A DNA stretch of 64,000 nt from positions 1 through 64,000 of the IMG/VR virus record IMGVR_UViG_2706794597_000005; one strand, 5' to 3'. A program made the position numbers and the translations under genes. Below, one piece after another: positions 43,880 to 62,302 of this stretch (the stretch's first letter is position 1; each line of letters begins with the position of its first letter). A model generated the notes under the pieces. The model saw only the letters and a list, made by a program, of their open reading frames with translations, searched no databases and was not told the DNA's origin. The stretch is from a virus (lineage: Duplodnaviria; Caudoviricetes).

Positions 43880-46640
43880 TTGTATCCCTCATACCTTCAG
43901 CCATTGATGGCGTTTCTGATGTGCCTTGTCGCCCAAGTTGCCGCGCAGTTTCCTCATTACGAGCCTGGGATTCTTTAGCTGCCTGCCCTGGTGTATAAGC
44001 TCTCGGTTTATTCACTTCTTTTGATAGCTGATTGAAGTAGCCACGATTGGTCGAGCCCAACTGAGCCAAATCAGCAAAACTGGCCGTAACTGGGTTGCCG
44101 TCTGCCCCACTAACAATCAATCCATTGAGAGTGAGCATTAATCCAGTTTCATCTGCATTGGTTACCCATTCAGCATTATCTTTGATGCGATTTAGGCTTT
44201 GTTGCTGGTTAACTTCATTGCTTAGGCGAGGGTCGCCAATCAATGGTGTAATGTCTGCTGGCTTAAGCTTGCTCATAAATGCATCTACGCCATCCGATAC
44301 ATCATTCATATCAGTATTGGCAGCAACCGGTAGTCGCCAAGTTCCTTTAGTCTGGTACTGGCTGCCTAAAATATCCTGATAGGCTTGTGAAGCAGCATCC
44401 GAAGCGCTCATGCCTTTCTGCATATTGAGATAGGTAAGGCGGCGGCCTTGGTCATTAAAATTATTCCAAACAGGAACCCCGCCAGGCTGTCCAACCATCG
44501 TTGCTGAAAAGTCTTTGGATTGAGAAGCCCATTCAGTATCGGCACTTTCTGCCGCGCCACTGGAAGCCGAGTTTATTGAGCTGCGTAATTCTGCTGTTTT
44601 TACATCGCGGTTTTGCCAAAGCGCATTGGCAGCACGTGGGTTATTGGTCGCCATGACAACCTGAAGCACTGGCCCTGATTTCTTCTGAACTTGTTGCATA
44701 ACTTGCTGAGAATATGGCCCGAACTGCTGCCCAAGAGACTGGATTGCAGCAACATCCTGCTCCTTGTTATTGTCAATCTGCTGAAGAATTCCATTAACAA
44801 GCGAGTCGGGAAGGACATCTTTGTTTTTAATGCCCAGCCGTTGCTTCTCCATTAGAACCTGGTGGGCTAACTGAGCACCTGTTGATGGGTCGCTCTGGTA
44901 ATTCTGATATGCCTCACTCACCGTCGGAATGTTTTGCACCATCCAACCACCTGGATCCTTCTCCCTTGCGGCTATAACTTGCTGGTACTTCTGTGCAACA
45001 GCAGTATAACGCTGCTGTTTGAAAGCAAAATCAGCGTCGCCAGTAGCAGGCATCAATCCATTAACCGTCTCTATGCCGACATTAGCCGGGCTTGAGATAA
45101 CGGTCTGATATGCAGGTTGTAGGGCCAGCGTCTGCTGATATTGATTGAATTGCTGATAGGCTTGCGCACGGTCAGCAGGGGTAGAGTTAAGCTGTTGTGC
45201 TGACGTAAAGTCAGAAATGGTAACAGGGTTTTCTACTGGCTTCCCAGAATTTACCCTGGCAACATCATCCTGCATTCGTTGTTGAATATTAAACCGCTGT
45301 GCAGATGTCGCTGTATCAATGACGTTATAAGTCTGCTCAACCGCGCGGGTTTTCTGCACCCCATCCAGATCTGCAAACTCAGGCGAATCTATAATTGATT
45401 TTGCAGCACTTAATTTTGAGGCGTTACTCAGCACTGATGAAACATAGTTCTGCGTTTCCGCATAAGGGATTGAATTAGCAAATGACTCATCTGTGATTTG
45501 CCCTTTACGCGGATCACCAAATCGGCTAATCCATTCATCAACTTTACCCGGCCCAGCATTATATGCAGCCAGCGCCAGAACGGGATTACCACCGTATTTT
45601 TTAAGCTGCTGGTTGAGATACGCCTTGCCAAGGGAGGCGTTATAATTAGCATCATTCTGGTGGCGAGCAGGATCCCACGGCAAACCAGCTAATGCTGCGG
45701 CCTCTGGCCCGGTAGCTGGCATCACCTGAGCAATGCCGGTTGCACCTTTCCCTGATGTAAGTGGCTTACCATCATTCCCAAATTGACGCCCCCCACTTTC
45801 CTGCCCAATCACGGCAGAGAATAAGTCATCCGAATTAATCGCATTGCCCACTTTAAAACCAGATAGAGCCTCTGGGTTCATGAGCGAAATTTTCACATTA
45901 CCAATGCGCTCGTTTACTGAATCCCACGCAGCCTGATCCAGCATTTTTTTTCTGGTGTCTAATGGGATTAAAGCTGCAATGCCAGCACCAGATTTTAGCG
46001 CGCTGACTTGCTCTTTTGGGGTTAACGATGAAACTGATGCTGTTGCATAGTCTACCGCTGACCGTTGCTTTATTTGCTGTGCTTGCTCTGCTGAAATGTA
46101 CCCCCGACTATGTGCGCCGATAATAGCGTCATTGGTCGCGTTGATAAGCCCCATTCGGGTTGACTCATCTTTAGCACTGATTGCTGCTTCCCGATTTGAT
46201 GTGATTGTCTGGTCGAGAGTGGCCCGCCCAAAATCAACCTCTTTATTTCTAACCAACCCGCGAACCTGGTCATAACCACGAGCAATGTCATTGTTTGACT
46301 CAATTTCAAATAGTCGCTTATCTGAATTGCTAACCAACAATCCAGCAGATTCTTCTCTGGCCTTGCTGATTTGTTCGTTGTACCGGTCACCAAAAGTGGG
46401 GTAATCATTGTCACCATCAAAAGATGCCATAATATCAAGCTTCCTTTTCAGGAAGTTTGACTGCGCTTCAGCATAGTTAAACTGATCTTCCTTTTGCTGA
46501 ATCTGGCCGCCAACCCGCTCAAGTGATTGTCCTAATCCTTGCAGTGCTCTGGATGGGGCTGTTATGTCTGCGCTAGCGACTCCGCGCGCCACATCAGGAA
46601 TGCGGCGGCCAATATCATTTGCATCAGGAATACGAGCCAT
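43827..46640 (-). CDS. Ejection protein with lytic transglycosylase (SLT) domain
   Basis: QESGG, GIAQVMPATG, ALAAYNAGPG, ETQNYV. Confidence 0.88.
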   Translation of the reverse strand: MARIPDANDIGRRIPDVARGVASADITAPSRALQGLGQSLERVGGQIQQKEDQFNYAEAQSNFLKRKLDIMASFDGDNDYPTFGDRYNEQISKAREESAGLLVSNSDKRLFEIESNNDIARGYDQVRGLVRNKEVDFGRATLDQTITSNREAAISAKDESTRMGLINATNDAIIGAHSRGYISAEQAQQIKQRSAVDYATASVSSLTPKEQVSALKSGAGIAALIPLDTRKKMLDQAAWDSVNERIGNVKISLMNPEALSGFKVGNAINSDDLFSAVIGQESGGRQFGNDGKPLTSGKGATGIAQVMPATGPEAAALAGLPWDPARHQNDANYNASLGKAYLNQQLKKYGGNPVLALAAYNAGPGKVDEWISRFGDPRKGQITDESFANSIPYAETQNYVSSVLSNASKLSAAKSIIDSPEFADLDGVQKTRAVEQTYNVIDTATSAQRFNIQQRMQDDVARVNSGKPVENPVTISDFTSAQQLNSTPADRAQAYQQFNQYQQTLALQPAYQTVISSPANVGIETVNGLMPATGDADFAFKQQRYTAVAQKYQQVIAAREKDPGGWMVQNIPTVSEAYQNYQSDPSTGAQLAHQVLMEKQRLGIKNKDVLPDSLVNGILQQIDNNKEQDVAAIQSLGQQFGPYSQQVMQQVQKKSGPVLQVVMATNNPRAANALWQNRDVKTAELRSSINSASSGAAESADTEWASQSKDFSATMVGQPGGVPVWNNFNDQGRRLTYLNMQKGMSASDAASQAYQDILGSQYQTKGTWRLPVAANTDMNDVSDGVDAFMSKLKPADITPLIGDPRLSNEVNQQQSLNRIKDNAEWVTNADETGLMLTLNGLIVSGADGNPVTASFADLAQLGSTNRGYFNQLSKEVNKPRAYTPGQAAKESQARNEETARQLGRQGTSETPSMAEGMRDTNANLHQRSGTGNKPANQ

Positions 46641-59868: not shown

Positions 59869-60192
59869 TTATTTAAACGAGGCGTTACGCTTCAACATCT
59901 GCGCAATGCTCATGTCTTGGAACAAAATCTCAATTTCAAGCTTTTCAGCTAAAGCATATTCAGCTCGAGCACCGGCACTAGATTGCCACCCATCGAGCAT
60001 GTAAATAGCATCAGCTCGTTGAAGCATTGCTATGCAAATACACATGTAGTCAGGTTGAGATAATCCGTCAGGGAGAATTGCTGGGCTCAATGTGACGTGA
60101 CCAGATTCTGCTATCTCTTTGGCTGCCGCATTGAATGCAGAGCGATTGAAATCAGGCAAGCCAGTCATGGGGCCAGCGATATAAGTTTTCAT
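59869..60192 (-). CDS. DUF4406 (nucleoside deoxyribosyltransferase-like) protein
   Basis: YIAGPMTG...FN..AF, ML..ADAIYML.GW..S.GA..E. Confidence 0.85.
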   Translation of the reverse strand: MKTYIAGPMTGLPDFNRSAFNAAAKEIAESGHVTLSPAILPDGLSQPDYMCICIAMLQRADAIYMLDGWQSSAGARAEYALAEKLEIEILFQDMSIAQMLKRNASFK

Positions 60193-60376
60193 TGTTCTGG
60201 CTCCGTAAATAAAAAAGGCCCACCGAAGTGAGCCTTAAAAGTTGGTTATGCGTGGAGTTACTTAACGCATAAGAGAAATAGGTTAACGCATTCGGCTGGG
60301 TACTGTTTCACAACGATTGGATTAACCAACCCAGTACCCATGCGAATATCATTTTAATATTTATGATGTATATCAC

Positions 60377-60405
60377 TTGATGCGTAGTCTGTTTTCGATT
60401 ACATT
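60377..60405 (+). promoter_or_regulatory. acr promoter with candidate Aca operator
   Basis: TTGATG-17nt-TACATT; imperfect inverted repeat GTAGTC...GATTAC overlaps spacer and -10. Confidence 0.6.
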
Positions 60406-60437
60406 AATCACATAGACAACGCGACGAGGCAAGCAAA

Positions 60438-60896
60438 ATGAAATTATTCCACGGCTCTTACAGCAACACCGCACCAGTTATCAAAGTAGGACAGTTCGCA
60501 ATGAGCGGTGATAACGTGTTTGATGGTCTGTTTGCTTCTGCTGAAGCAGAAATAGCAGAGTCACATGGTGATTTCATTCACTCTTATGAAGTTGATTCAG
60601 TCGCAACTAACTCAGATTTGAACGCCAGCATTGAAGAAGTGATTTCGTTCTTATCTTCTGAAATCGAAGCCGATGCTGATGAAATTGAATCACTGGCTAA
60701 CGCAATTGCTGATGATGAGTGTGATGATGCTTTTGAACACCTGTTAGCGCCTCGCTCTTGCACTGGCAACGCCTCATGGGAAATGCAGCGGCTGCGTGGT
60801 CGTGTTGCCGCTCACCTCGGTTTCGATGCGGTAGAAATGGATGACGAGCACGGCACTTCATACTTAATCGTAAATCCAGCAATCACGGCGGCTTGA
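60438..60896 (+). CDS. acrIF11: Anti-CRISPR AcrIF11-family ADP-ribosyltransferase
   Basis: LFHGSY, VF.GLF, A.SHG, WEMQRLRG..A..LGF..VEM.DEHGTS match recalled AcrIF11 motifs; acidic; followed by an aca gene. Confidence 0.9.
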   Translation: MKLFHGSYSNTAPVIKVGQFAMSGDNVFDGLFASAEAEIAESHGDFIHSYEVDSVATNSDLNASIEEVISFLSSEIEADADEIESLANAIADDECDDAFEHLLAPRSCTGNASWEMQRLRGRVAAHLGFDAVEMDDEHGTSYLIVNPAITAA

Positions 60897-60897
60897 T

Positions 60898-61068
60898 ATG
60901 GAACTAATCGAATATATCAAACTAAATTTTTCAGCCAATCAATCTGAGTTTGCCCGACACATGGGTGTTGACCGACAAAAAATCCAAGTGTGGATAAAGA
61001 GTGAGTGGATTGTTGTTGGTAATAAGCTTTACGCCCCACGCCGAGAGATTCCTGAAATTGATATGTAG
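60898..61068 (+). CDS. aca5: Anti-CRISPR-associated HTH repressor Aca5 (56 aa, absent from ORF track)
   Basis: My translation MELIEYIKLNFSANQSEFARHMGVDRQKIQVWIKSEWIVVGNKLYAPRREIPEIDM; starts 1 nt after acr stop. Confidence 0.85.
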   Translation: MELIEYIKLNFSANQSEFARHMGVDRQKIQVWIKSEWIVVGNKLYAPRREIPEIDM

Positions 61069-61112
61069 AAATGCAAAAAGCCCAACCGGTTAGGGCTGGG
61101 CCTTGAATACTT

Positions 61113-61199
61113 GCTCGGCTCACTCCCCAACACTGTCATGACATTATGGGGACTACGAAGTTGTCATGACCGGATACCTACTTGCCGAGCGGTGGTATC
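61113..61199. ncRNA. Candidate double-pseudoknot structured RNA in the late leader
   Basis: Four perfect interleaved complementary pairs (6-9 bp) within 87 nt, between two terminator hairpins. Confidence 0.45.
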
Positions 61200-61212
61200 G
61201 TACGCTCTTTAT

Positions 61213-61310
61213 AAAAGCCCCGGCGATTAACCGAGGCTTCAAGTGCGTCAACAATGGACAAATTCCCACTGTTAGAAACTTTAACCCCAACTTTCGGAAA
61301 AGTAAATAGC
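61213..61310 (-). promoter_or_regulatory. Late promoter pR' and terminator tR'
   Basis: Minus strand TTTACT-17nt-TAAAGT just after Q, then hairpin GCCTCGG-TTAATCG-CCGGGGC-TTTT. Confidence 0.6.
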
Positions 61311-61343
61311 TATAGATAAAATAATTAACTATTTTCTAATTCA

Positions 61344-62114
61344 TTATTTGGTTACCTCCTTAAGCACCCTTTCTGCGTTACTTTCCTCGACATCAAGCTG
61401 ATGAATCAATGAGTCATAAAACGGTTTTATCGTCTTATCCCACGTTGCCGCACTAATTAAATCGGTGAATGCACAAATTGCCCTGAATGCGTCTGCTGCC
61501 GGTATTCGCTCATACCCAAGCCCGTTGCAGCGCTTGCAGTCACGTAGAACTGGAACACCTTGTCTCTCCGTTTCTTTTTGGTCAACAGCAACTCGCCTGC
61601 CACGGCAATCACGACACGCCACCGAAAGATGCCCCTTGCCATTACAGTGAGTGCAAATTTCGTCTACAACTTCGACCTTGGTTTTTGCTGGTGTTTTATC
61701 CCCGCAACCAGGGTGCTTGATAACGTTCTTTGCCCCGCTGATAAACTTCTTTCCCTTACATCGCGGACACTCTTCCACCCCAGAGGCGCTGCGGCAATAA
61801 TCCTTATAGGCGAAAGTTGCGAGCTTTTGCACTACCTTCACTTTAATCTTGGTGTCTAGCTTGCGTAAGGCTGCAACCTTGTCGCAATGCTTCATTCCAT
61901 ACTGAGTGAGTAATTGAATTGCACGTTTAACATCATCCTGACTTAGCCCTAGCTTTCCCCAAAAAGCTTTAATGCCAAGCTCCGCCCTCGACTGGCACAT
62001 TCCGAAAGCACCCATATGATCGGTGCCGGTAAGAGTGTCGCCAGTACATCTAGGTGAGTCAGTGAAGGACTGAGTTTTGCAGAAGAAATATTTTGATGCT
62101 GATTCTAAGCTCAT
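61344..62114 (-). CDS. Q: Late antiterminator Q with zinc-finger repeats
   Basis: AY.DYCRSA, CxxCxGxG repeats, W....KPFYD.L; precedes lysis cassette. Confidence 0.9.
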   Translation of the reverse strand: MSLESASKYFFCKTQSFTDSPRCTGDTLTGTDHMGAFGMCQSRAELGIKAFWGKLGLSQDDVKRAIQLLTQYGMKHCDKVAALRKLDTKIKVKVVQKLATFAYKDYCRSASGVEECPRCKGKKFISGAKNVIKHPGCGDKTPAKTKVEVVDEICTHCNGKGHLSVACRDCRGRRVAVDQKETERQGVPVLRDCKRCNGLGYERIPAADAFRAICAFTDLISAATWDKTIKPFYDSLIHQLDVEESNAERVLKEVTK

Positions 62115-62302
62115 TCTGACCTCTTCCTGCCAGTTGTCCCGACCATCAGCCGACCATTAACAATGGCGTGCCGTTCGCCTTTAAAGTCATTGGCGTATTT
62201 CTTTACTGTTGAGCGCTGAGTGTTTAGCTGGACCGCAACAGTTGATTGGTTTCCATAAGCGGAAATTAGTAACTCGGGAATAGTTTTCACATCTGCTTTC
62301 AT
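62111..62302 (-). CDS. ninH: NinH-like protein
   Basis: TIPELL...YGNQ..VA, HAIVNG.LMV. Confidence 0.88.
   Translation of the reverse strand: MKADVKTIPELLISAYGNQSTVAVQLNTQRSTVKKYANDFKGERHAIVNGRLMVGTTGRKRSE

Follow-up and report, generated by a model that had tools for sequence, protein, structure and literature searches.

Four perfect RNA helices encoded downstream of the late antiterminator gene Q in a lambdoid provirus belong to a conserved family of phage RNAs. The window analyzed is a stretch of 64,000 nucleotides (positions 1–64,000 of IMG/VR record IMGVR_UViG_2706794597_000005), with its late genes encoded by the minus strand. The helices occupy positions 61105–61205, where an initial annotation had proposed a structured RNA with a double pseudoknot. 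That proposal is borne out by compensatory changes in all four helices among 35 distinct phage and provirus sequences, which were found by pattern scans of IMG/VR and by blastn. Each of these relatives carries a type I hammerhead motif within the four-helix scaffold. The window element is a copy that lacks the hammerhead, and on balance we regard it as probably a recent, non-catalytic remnant that can still fold but has no role of its own.

Structure of the window element

The RNA sense of the element is the minus strand, although the initial annotation had written it on the plus strand. All four arm pairs, their interleaved order, and the TACTT repeats before both A arms are present in the sequence exactly as that annotation had listed them. 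On the plus strand the order is A B C B' C' D A' D', with TACTT at 61108–61112 and 61179–61183, and the helices together comprise 28 perfect base pairs in 101 nucleotides. Coordinates of the element, its parts and the neighboring genes are given in Table 1. In 2000 dinucleotide shuffles of the 101 nucleotides, the mean number of perfect helices of at least 6 bp was 0.62, compared with the 4 observed. Four helices were reached by 3 of the 2000 shuffles and a 9-bp helix was present in 18, while none reached 28 bp. The folding energy of nested structures alone is ordinary, with z-scores of -0.96 for the minus strand and -1.61 for the plus strand, as is expected because the helices cross one another.

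Table 1. Positions of the element, its parts and neighboring features in the window.
Feature	Positions	Strand	Remarks
Whole element, scaffold without ribozyme core	61109–61211	-	cmsearch match to model R1
Helix A, plus-strand letters	61113–61119 with 61184–61190		GCTCGGC with GCCGAGC
Helix B, plus-strand letters	61124–61129 with 61147–61152		TCCCCA with TGGGGA
Helix C, plus-strand letters	61135–61143 with 61162–61170		GTCATGACA with TGTCATGAC
Helix D, plus-strand letters	61173–61178 with 61194–61199		GATACC with GGTATC
Helix D, 5' strand, GAUACC	61194–61199	-	Partner 61173–61178
Helix A, 5' strand, GCUCGGC	61184–61190	-	Inside the loop of hairpin D; partner 61113–61119; H-type pseudoknot
AAGUA linker, single-stranded	61179–61183	-	Between A 5' and D 3' strands; invariant in 37/37 rows of alignment A5
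Helix D, 3' strand, GGUAUC	61173–61178	-	
Helix C, 5' strand, GUCAUGACA	61162–61170	-	Second "palindrome" of the initial annotation
Junction ACUUCGUAG	61153–61161	-	Site of the ~50-nt type I hammerhead of relatives (alignments A3, A5)
Helix B, 5' strand, UCCCCA	61147–61152	-	Partner 61124–61129
Helix C, 3' strand, UGUCAUGAC	61135–61143	-	Inside the loop of hairpin B; second pseudoknot
Helix B, 3' strand, UGGGGA	61124–61129	-	
GUGA between B and A 3' strands	61120–61123	-	In 36/37 rows of alignment A5
Helix A, 3' strand, GCCGAGC	61113–61119	-	
Late antiterminator Q	61344–62114	-	PF03589, E 1e-37; phrog_127
Terminator-like hairpin 1, then UUUUAU	61213–61240	-	Upstream of the element, at the tR' position of relatives
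Intrinsic terminator 2	61077–61104	-	Directly downstream of the element; scan reports 11 pairs, then a U-tract
AcrIF11-like anti-CRISPR homologue, 152 aa	60438–60896	+	phmmer against PDB 6kyf chain A (AcrF11)
Helix-turn-helix protein, 56 aa, Aca-like by position only	60898–61068	+	HTH_28, E 0.001; phrog_10103

A search of Rfam 15 over positions 60300–62200 with E-values up to 10 gave no match in the element; the only match at its edge was the XIST A-repeat (15.6 bits, 61080–61115). Rfam 15 holds no family for the scaffold, and the initial annotation, which had proposed this search, recognized none either. It had also judged that the element fits neither a tRNA nor the HDV fold, and we concur. 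ARAGORN found no tRNA or tmRNA gene in the window, and neither tRNA nor HDV families matched in the Rfam search of 60300–62200. HDV-like and theta ribozymes are likewise double pseudoknots located by tRNA genes of tailed phages, according to the available text of Kienbeck et al. 2024 (PMC10879173), and with the minus strand read as RNA, helices D, A and B could take the places of P1, P2 and P4. That assignment leaves only 5–6 nucleotides (AAGUA plus a G) for P3 and L3 and gives helix C no HDV counterpart, and the catalytic motif of the relatives is a hammerhead.

Relatives in phages and proviruses

Searched by blastn against GenBank phages, positions 61170–61211 match intergenic DNA by tRNA genes of Klebsiella and E. 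coli phages (19 records). When these matches are placed side by side, helices A and B differ by compensatory changes, and about 50 extra nucleotides occupy the middle of the element. The first 42 nucleotides of the minus-strand element, from 61211 down to 61170, are identical to one relative, L068. We built a covariance model, R1, from 15 hammerhead-bearing members with the window excluded; it describes the nested helices A, C and I–III only. A cmsearch run with R1 recovers the minus-strand element with a score of 80.3 bits (E 2.2e-17) over model positions 1–147, with an internal deletion. The copy in the provirus locus L056 is 96.5% identical to the window over 201 nucleotides. Contigs from a wastewater run, labelled RNA-Seq and probably DNA, hold 60786–61215, and no difference is listed inside the element.

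Among 18 loci that encode an AcrIF11-like protein, only L016, which is on the same contig as L056, has the element, and it is absent from 13 loci with relatives of Q (11 in IMG/VR and 2 in genomes). No second copy exists within the provirus record, and none was found in the plasmids searched. An exact 37-mer scan of genome and viral contigs returned no matches, L056 being missed by one mismatch. In 401 Enterobacteriaceae genomes, blastn gave just four matches of 19–33 nucleotides, which we judged to be chance, and R1 had no matches in 151 Enterobacteriaceae genomes. In 28 Yersinia genomes the terminators and the leader found matches, but 61105–61205 never did. The element of one relative in a lambda-like leader, L069, is absent from 5426 E. 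coli genomes. Two further sets of candidates were set aside: a metagenome pattern match, L057, was unrelated by eye, and a loose helix-D pattern returned at least 117 stretches, 74 of which were compared with R1 and gave 13 weak matches (13.7–18.6 bits), again judged to be chance.

Covariation of the four helices

Covariation was assessed on alignment A5, which has 37 distinct rows: the 35 full members, the window and L056. The full pseudoknotted structure is paired in 95.2% of 1410 cells, whereas controls in which one partner was slid are paired in 34–42%. Of 39 pairs, 31 are changed on both sides, a number reached by none of 500 shuffles (24.0 +/- 1.7). All four helices contribute, with changes on both sides in 5/6 pairs of helix D, 7/7 of A, 8/8 of C and 6/6 of B. 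The alignment was not fitted to helices D and B, because both lie outside the model. Helix D is invariant in the first set of members, a set that was found through D, and it covaries in members that were found via the hammerhead pattern. MAFFT alignment A1 misplaced the gap of the window, and the model-guided alignments were used. In A3 and A5 the 5' strand of the window's helix B sits one column off register, since B is outside the model, and two of its cells therefore count as unpaired, even though the sequence itself forms six perfect pairs there.

The same data determine the strand and the nature of the repeated 9-mers. The hammerhead core reads only on the strand equivalent to the minus strand, and G-U cells (22) outnumber A-C cells (7). 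In relatives helix C takes other forms, including GUCAAGAC/GUCUUGAU and GUGAUC/GAUCAC. A compensated change in the helix of the GUCAAGAC/GUCUUGAU subgroup yields a self-complementary strand and with it the two "palindromes" seen in the window.

A type I hammerhead within the scaffold

In 35/35 relatives a type I hammerhead lies between helices C and B. The order of the family in RNA sense is D5' A5' AAGUA D3' C5', then the hammerhead (stem I, core, stems II and III, UH cleavage site, stem I), then B5' C3' B3' GUGA A3'. It follows from this order that the four helices prolong the open stem I of the hammerhead as a double pseudoknot. The relatives share the canonical core, three stems, open stem I and UH cleavage site of type I hammerheads (Rfam clan CL00010). 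The core was tallied in 15 members; the further 20 came from a pattern search in which the core was obligatory, and it is visible in their alignment. In the tallied members the core is CUGAUGA in 14/15 and CUGACGA in 1/15, and GAAA, the A15.1-U16.1 pair and the C-G pair beside the core are present in 15/15. The nucleotide at the cleavage site is A in 6, C in 5, U in 4 and G in none. In full members such as L069:2538–2683, L068:5211–5350 and L061:12136–12275 (all minus strand), the predicted cut would follow the UH located just before GCGUAG (GCAUAG in L068). At pair 10.1-11.1 of stem II, 4 of the 15 have G-C, one has G-U and 10 are mismatched, and for this reason we describe self-cleavage by full members as predicted. 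Several relatives have GNRA-like stem II loops of the GCAA, GUAA and U-GAGA-U types. In Rfam the relatives score below threshold, with 26.2 bits for HH9 (gathering score 52) and 23.8 bits for HH3 (gathering score 48.5).

The relatives reside in phage and prophage DNA, as do many bacterial hammerheads in the portion of PMC3088659 available to us. Hammerheads in prophages are reported there, and the pseudoknots described in that portion link stems I and II (Perreault et al. 2011). In the relatives, unlike these, stem I continues into a double-pseudoknot platform. The platform is undescribed in the literature searched, as far as the text available from its sources goes (these include PMC3088659, PMC10879173 and PMC8782182), although Dataset S1 of PMC3088659 may list some members.

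The D/A pseudoknot, the AAGUA linker and GUGA are highly conserved in sequence across Ackermannviridae, Schitoviridae, Stephanstirmvirinae and lambdoid proviruses, and the 5' half of the platform shows more sequence conservation across unrelated phages than do the hammerhead's own stems. The only exception to GUGA is L187, the lowest-scoring row (74.2 bits), which has gaps and GG at that site. The A5 row of the window has all of the conserved unpaired motifs of the scaffold, namely the GAGC-UAC 5' flank, the AAGUA linker and GUGA before the A 3' strand.

The full form is a type I hammerhead whose open stem I is extended by a compact four-helix platform. The loop of hairpin D carries the 5' strand of A, and after it come the 5' strand of C, the hammerhead, and hairpin B with the 3' strand of C in its loop. 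GUGA and the 3' strand of helix A then close the platform, such that two interlocked pseudoknots tie the 5' and 3' ends together. In full members the platform would hold stem I and may also receive the loop of stem II, and self-cleavage would leave a 2',3'-cyclic phosphate on the upstream product and a 5'-OH on the downstream product.

Sequences flanking the family vary and give it a modular appearance. In many family members the 5' flank forms a small hairpin with CACCA after it, as in GCCGG-AGAUCAGCA-CCGGC-CACCA (L060 and L073–L075); this unit resembles a minihelix with a CCA end. In the 3' flank of L183, L219 and L234 there is a hairpin with a GAAAGAC-type loop. A variant between tRNA-Asn and tRNA-Gly genes (L064:485–610, minus strand) has the same D hairpin and AAGUA linker with a different interior and no hammerhead core; it has no relatives among GenBank phages and is not detected by R1. 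Separately, L068 carries the DUF2815 RNA motif of Rfam at 2676–2735 on the minus strand (59.5 bits, above the gathering score), upstream of an ssDNA-binding-like gene.

Loss of the hammerhead from the window copy

The hammerhead is present in 35 of the 37 rows of A5 and absent from the window and L056. These two share one gap of about 50 nucleotides that removes the 5' strand of stem I, the CUGAUGA core, stems II and III, GAAA and the cleavage site. CUGANGA and GAAA are absent from the RNA-sense stretch 61205–61105, and no hammerhead matched in the Rfam search of 60300–62200 at E up to 10. A stub of the 3' strand of stem I, CGUAG at 61157–61153, is left over without a partner. The shared gap, together with the high identity of the two copies, indicates a single deletion event. 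Compared with a type I hammerhead, the window copy is thus without core, stems II and III and cleavage site, and because these are gone it cannot cleave itself by the hammerhead mechanism.

Genomic setting of the window element and its relatives

On the minus strand of the window, genes for NinG, NinH and Q are followed by genes for DUF4406, holin, lysozyme, Rz and the small terminase subunit. The late promoter pR' would lie at about 61285–61320, just downstream of Q, as placed by alignment with the leaders of Q relatives. The initial annotation had put the element after a tR'-like hairpin in a Q-dependent late leader, and gene order and leader alignment agree with this placement. Both of the bounding hairpins that it had described exist, but they have terminator shape on the minus strand only, and of the two the terminator scan reports only 61104–61077. 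Hairpin 1, which the scan did not report, has a short U-tract; of the 28 Yersinia genomes searched, 8 contain sites that match its 28-mer at 97–100% identity. Since the element lies between two minus-strand terminators, we infer that it is transcribed only by Q-modified, terminator-resistant polymerase. This polymerase would read through 61240–61213, and the element would then form part of the late-operon leader.

The terminators share AAAAGCCC (61076–61092 and 61213–61229). The close relatives L026 and L027 each have a single terminator, one or the other, at the same junction, and the element plus one terminator therefore behaves as a 137-nt indel flanked by AAAAGCCC. The indel looks like the product of an exchange at the terminators. 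The pR' leader and hairpin 1 (61213–61338) are 72% identical to an unannotated stretch of Erwinia phage phiEt88 (44043–44177). Five loci with the same Q type (L009, L010, L002, L006 and L007) have about 100 nucleotides between two terminators or after tR'; these stretches downstream of Q are unrelated in sequence and have no match to R1.

Next to the element, the plus-strand gene for the AcrIF11-like protein (phrog_11282, function unknown) converges on the late transcript. Its product matches residues 1–145 of AcrF11 (6kyf chain A) with an E-value of 7.2e-15, which upholds the anti-CRISPR neighbor named in the initial annotation. The HTH_28 match of the 56-aa protein is below the Pfam cut-off. 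"Acr operon," the term used in that annotation, is a reasonable one, because the AcrF11 homologue and the helix-turn-helix protein converge on the element. The acr homologue and the HTH gene (60438–61068, plus strand) make up an insert that runs opposite to Q and the lysis genes on either side of it, and minus-strand terminators flank it at 61104–61077 and 60236–60215. Upstream of the acr-like gene, 60246–60347 contains the inverted repeat TTATGCGTGGAGT / ACTTAACGCATAA, the sequence TTAACGCAT in two copies spaced 21 nucleotides apart, and a 16-nt inverted repeat (60290–60305 with 60332–60347). These repeats are candidate operator or leader elements, and part of the region recurs downstream of the HTH gene of L028.

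The relatives adjoin tRNA clusters where the host genome is a virulent Klebsiella or E. coli phage, and in lambdoid prophages they occupy the interval between Q and the lysis genes. Nine of the 33 hammerhead-bearing loci scanned have a tRNA gene near the element, and the tRNA-adjacent loci are L058, L059, L060, L066, L072, L186, L193, L208 and L064. In L065, L069, L207, L227, L234 and L240 the element lies between a Q-type gene and holin or lysis (lysozyme) genes. Other members are near replication or ssDNA-binding genes. The link to an acr locus and to anti-defense that had been suggested for the element is not supported: the relatives whose neighbors were inspected adjoin tRNA genes or lie in Q-to-lysis leaders, and no acr gene was noticed nearby.

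Lambda has a leader at the same site, from pR' to tR', known as 6S RNA. Like the leader that contains the window element, it comes after Q and pR' and before the lysis genes, and it ends at an intrinsic terminator. The window element differs in lying after, rather than before, the first terminator-like hairpin. In L069 a leader that is 96.7% identical to lambda 44503–44715 runs up to the element, and a terminator comes after it. Lambda itself is without the element, and the match between L069 and lambda stops where the element starts. No hammerhead in a lambda-type late leader is described in the available text of the literature searched.

Weighing alternative explanations

The main competitor of the remnant reading is that the platform is itself the functional RNA module, for example a nuclease-blocking or factor-binding structure at the head of late transcripts, with the hammerhead as an accessory and the window copy as a working variant. 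All 28 pairs are intact in both the window and the L056 copy, and the three substitutions between the two in 101 nucleotides all fall at unpaired positions, a weak point since (45/101)^3 is 0.09. The wastewater contig carries an identical element. Conservation of the platform's 5' half, with the D/A pseudoknot, AAGUA and GUGA, across phage families and lambdoid proviruses hints at a role beyond scaffolding, and L064 combines the D hairpin and linker with no hammerhead. What speaks for a remnant is that all other members of the family have the hammerhead and that the two exceptions derive from one event; L064 is a singleton; the stub that is left of stem I looks more like decay than design; and no independent promoter was found. 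Given the intact pairs, the wastewater copy, the D/A conservation and L064, we assign the competing reading a minor but real chance. The platform would then be an undescribed autonomous phage module, perhaps a nuclease-resistant cap or a factor-binding structure, usually armed with a hammerhead and used in tRNA arrays and late leaders, and the window would demonstrate that it survives and functions when the ribozyme is gone.

The remaining explanations fare less well. A separate small RNA gene that has its own promoter and ends at terminator 2 would fit the strong intrinsic terminator directly after the element, but in a promoter scan of 60200–62200 the minus strand showed no sigma-70-like site ahead of the element, the upstream interval is taken up by the hairpin at 61240–61213, and the relatives lie inside longer transcription units (tRNA arrays and late leaders); we consider such a gene improbable. 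It is more doubtful still that the two TGTCATGAC palindromes are DNA operators, for instance for the neighboring Aca-like HTH protein, and the other complementarity incidental. Two copies of a 9-mer palindrome 28 bp apart beside an acr-HTH gene pair do invite that idea, which the initial annotation had raised. The palindrome, however, is absent from the acr promoter region (60180–60460) and in exact form from the rest of the window, where allowing up to one mismatch gives 4 matches compared with 2.64 expected, and a terminator separates the sites from the operon, downstream of which they are found. They are instead the two strands of helix C, which in the relatives are non-palindromic yet mutually complementary and change on both sides in every pair. 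Chance complementarity, in spacer that mosaic recombination had left behind between two terminators, would agree with the indel-like behavior of the segment (L026 having only terminator 2 and L027 only terminator 1), with the AAAAGCCC flanks of the extra segment and with the unremarkable z-scores of nested folding. The failure of every shuffle to reach 28 bp, the E-value of the R1 match and the covariation of all four helices run against it, and we count this reading as already refuted.

Discussion

We favor the interpretation that the window element is a copy of a conserved phage RNA that has lost its hammerhead and, by inference, its function. RNA anti-CRISPRs offer another comparison for a non-coding RNA candidate beside an acr gene: Racr RNAs are solitary mimics of CRISPR repeats, according to the available part of PMC10651486. 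The likeness is one of position, and it is offset by two differences from the Racr RNAs of that source, as members of the family occur without acr genes and the structure is not a repeat hairpin but the pseudoknotted platform of a ribozyme.

Although the window element is probably inert, it leads to a conserved family of hammerheads in which stem I is joined to two interlocked pseudoknots. The family falls below the threshold of Rfam 15 and spans very different enterobacterial phages, in which it accompanies tRNA genes or occupies the site of the lambda pR'-tR' leader. This distribution raises the question of whether a self-cleaving RNA serves to sever or stabilize late transcripts and tRNA precursors. 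The hammerhead-less copy in turn constitutes a natural deletion mutant for the role of the platform alone.
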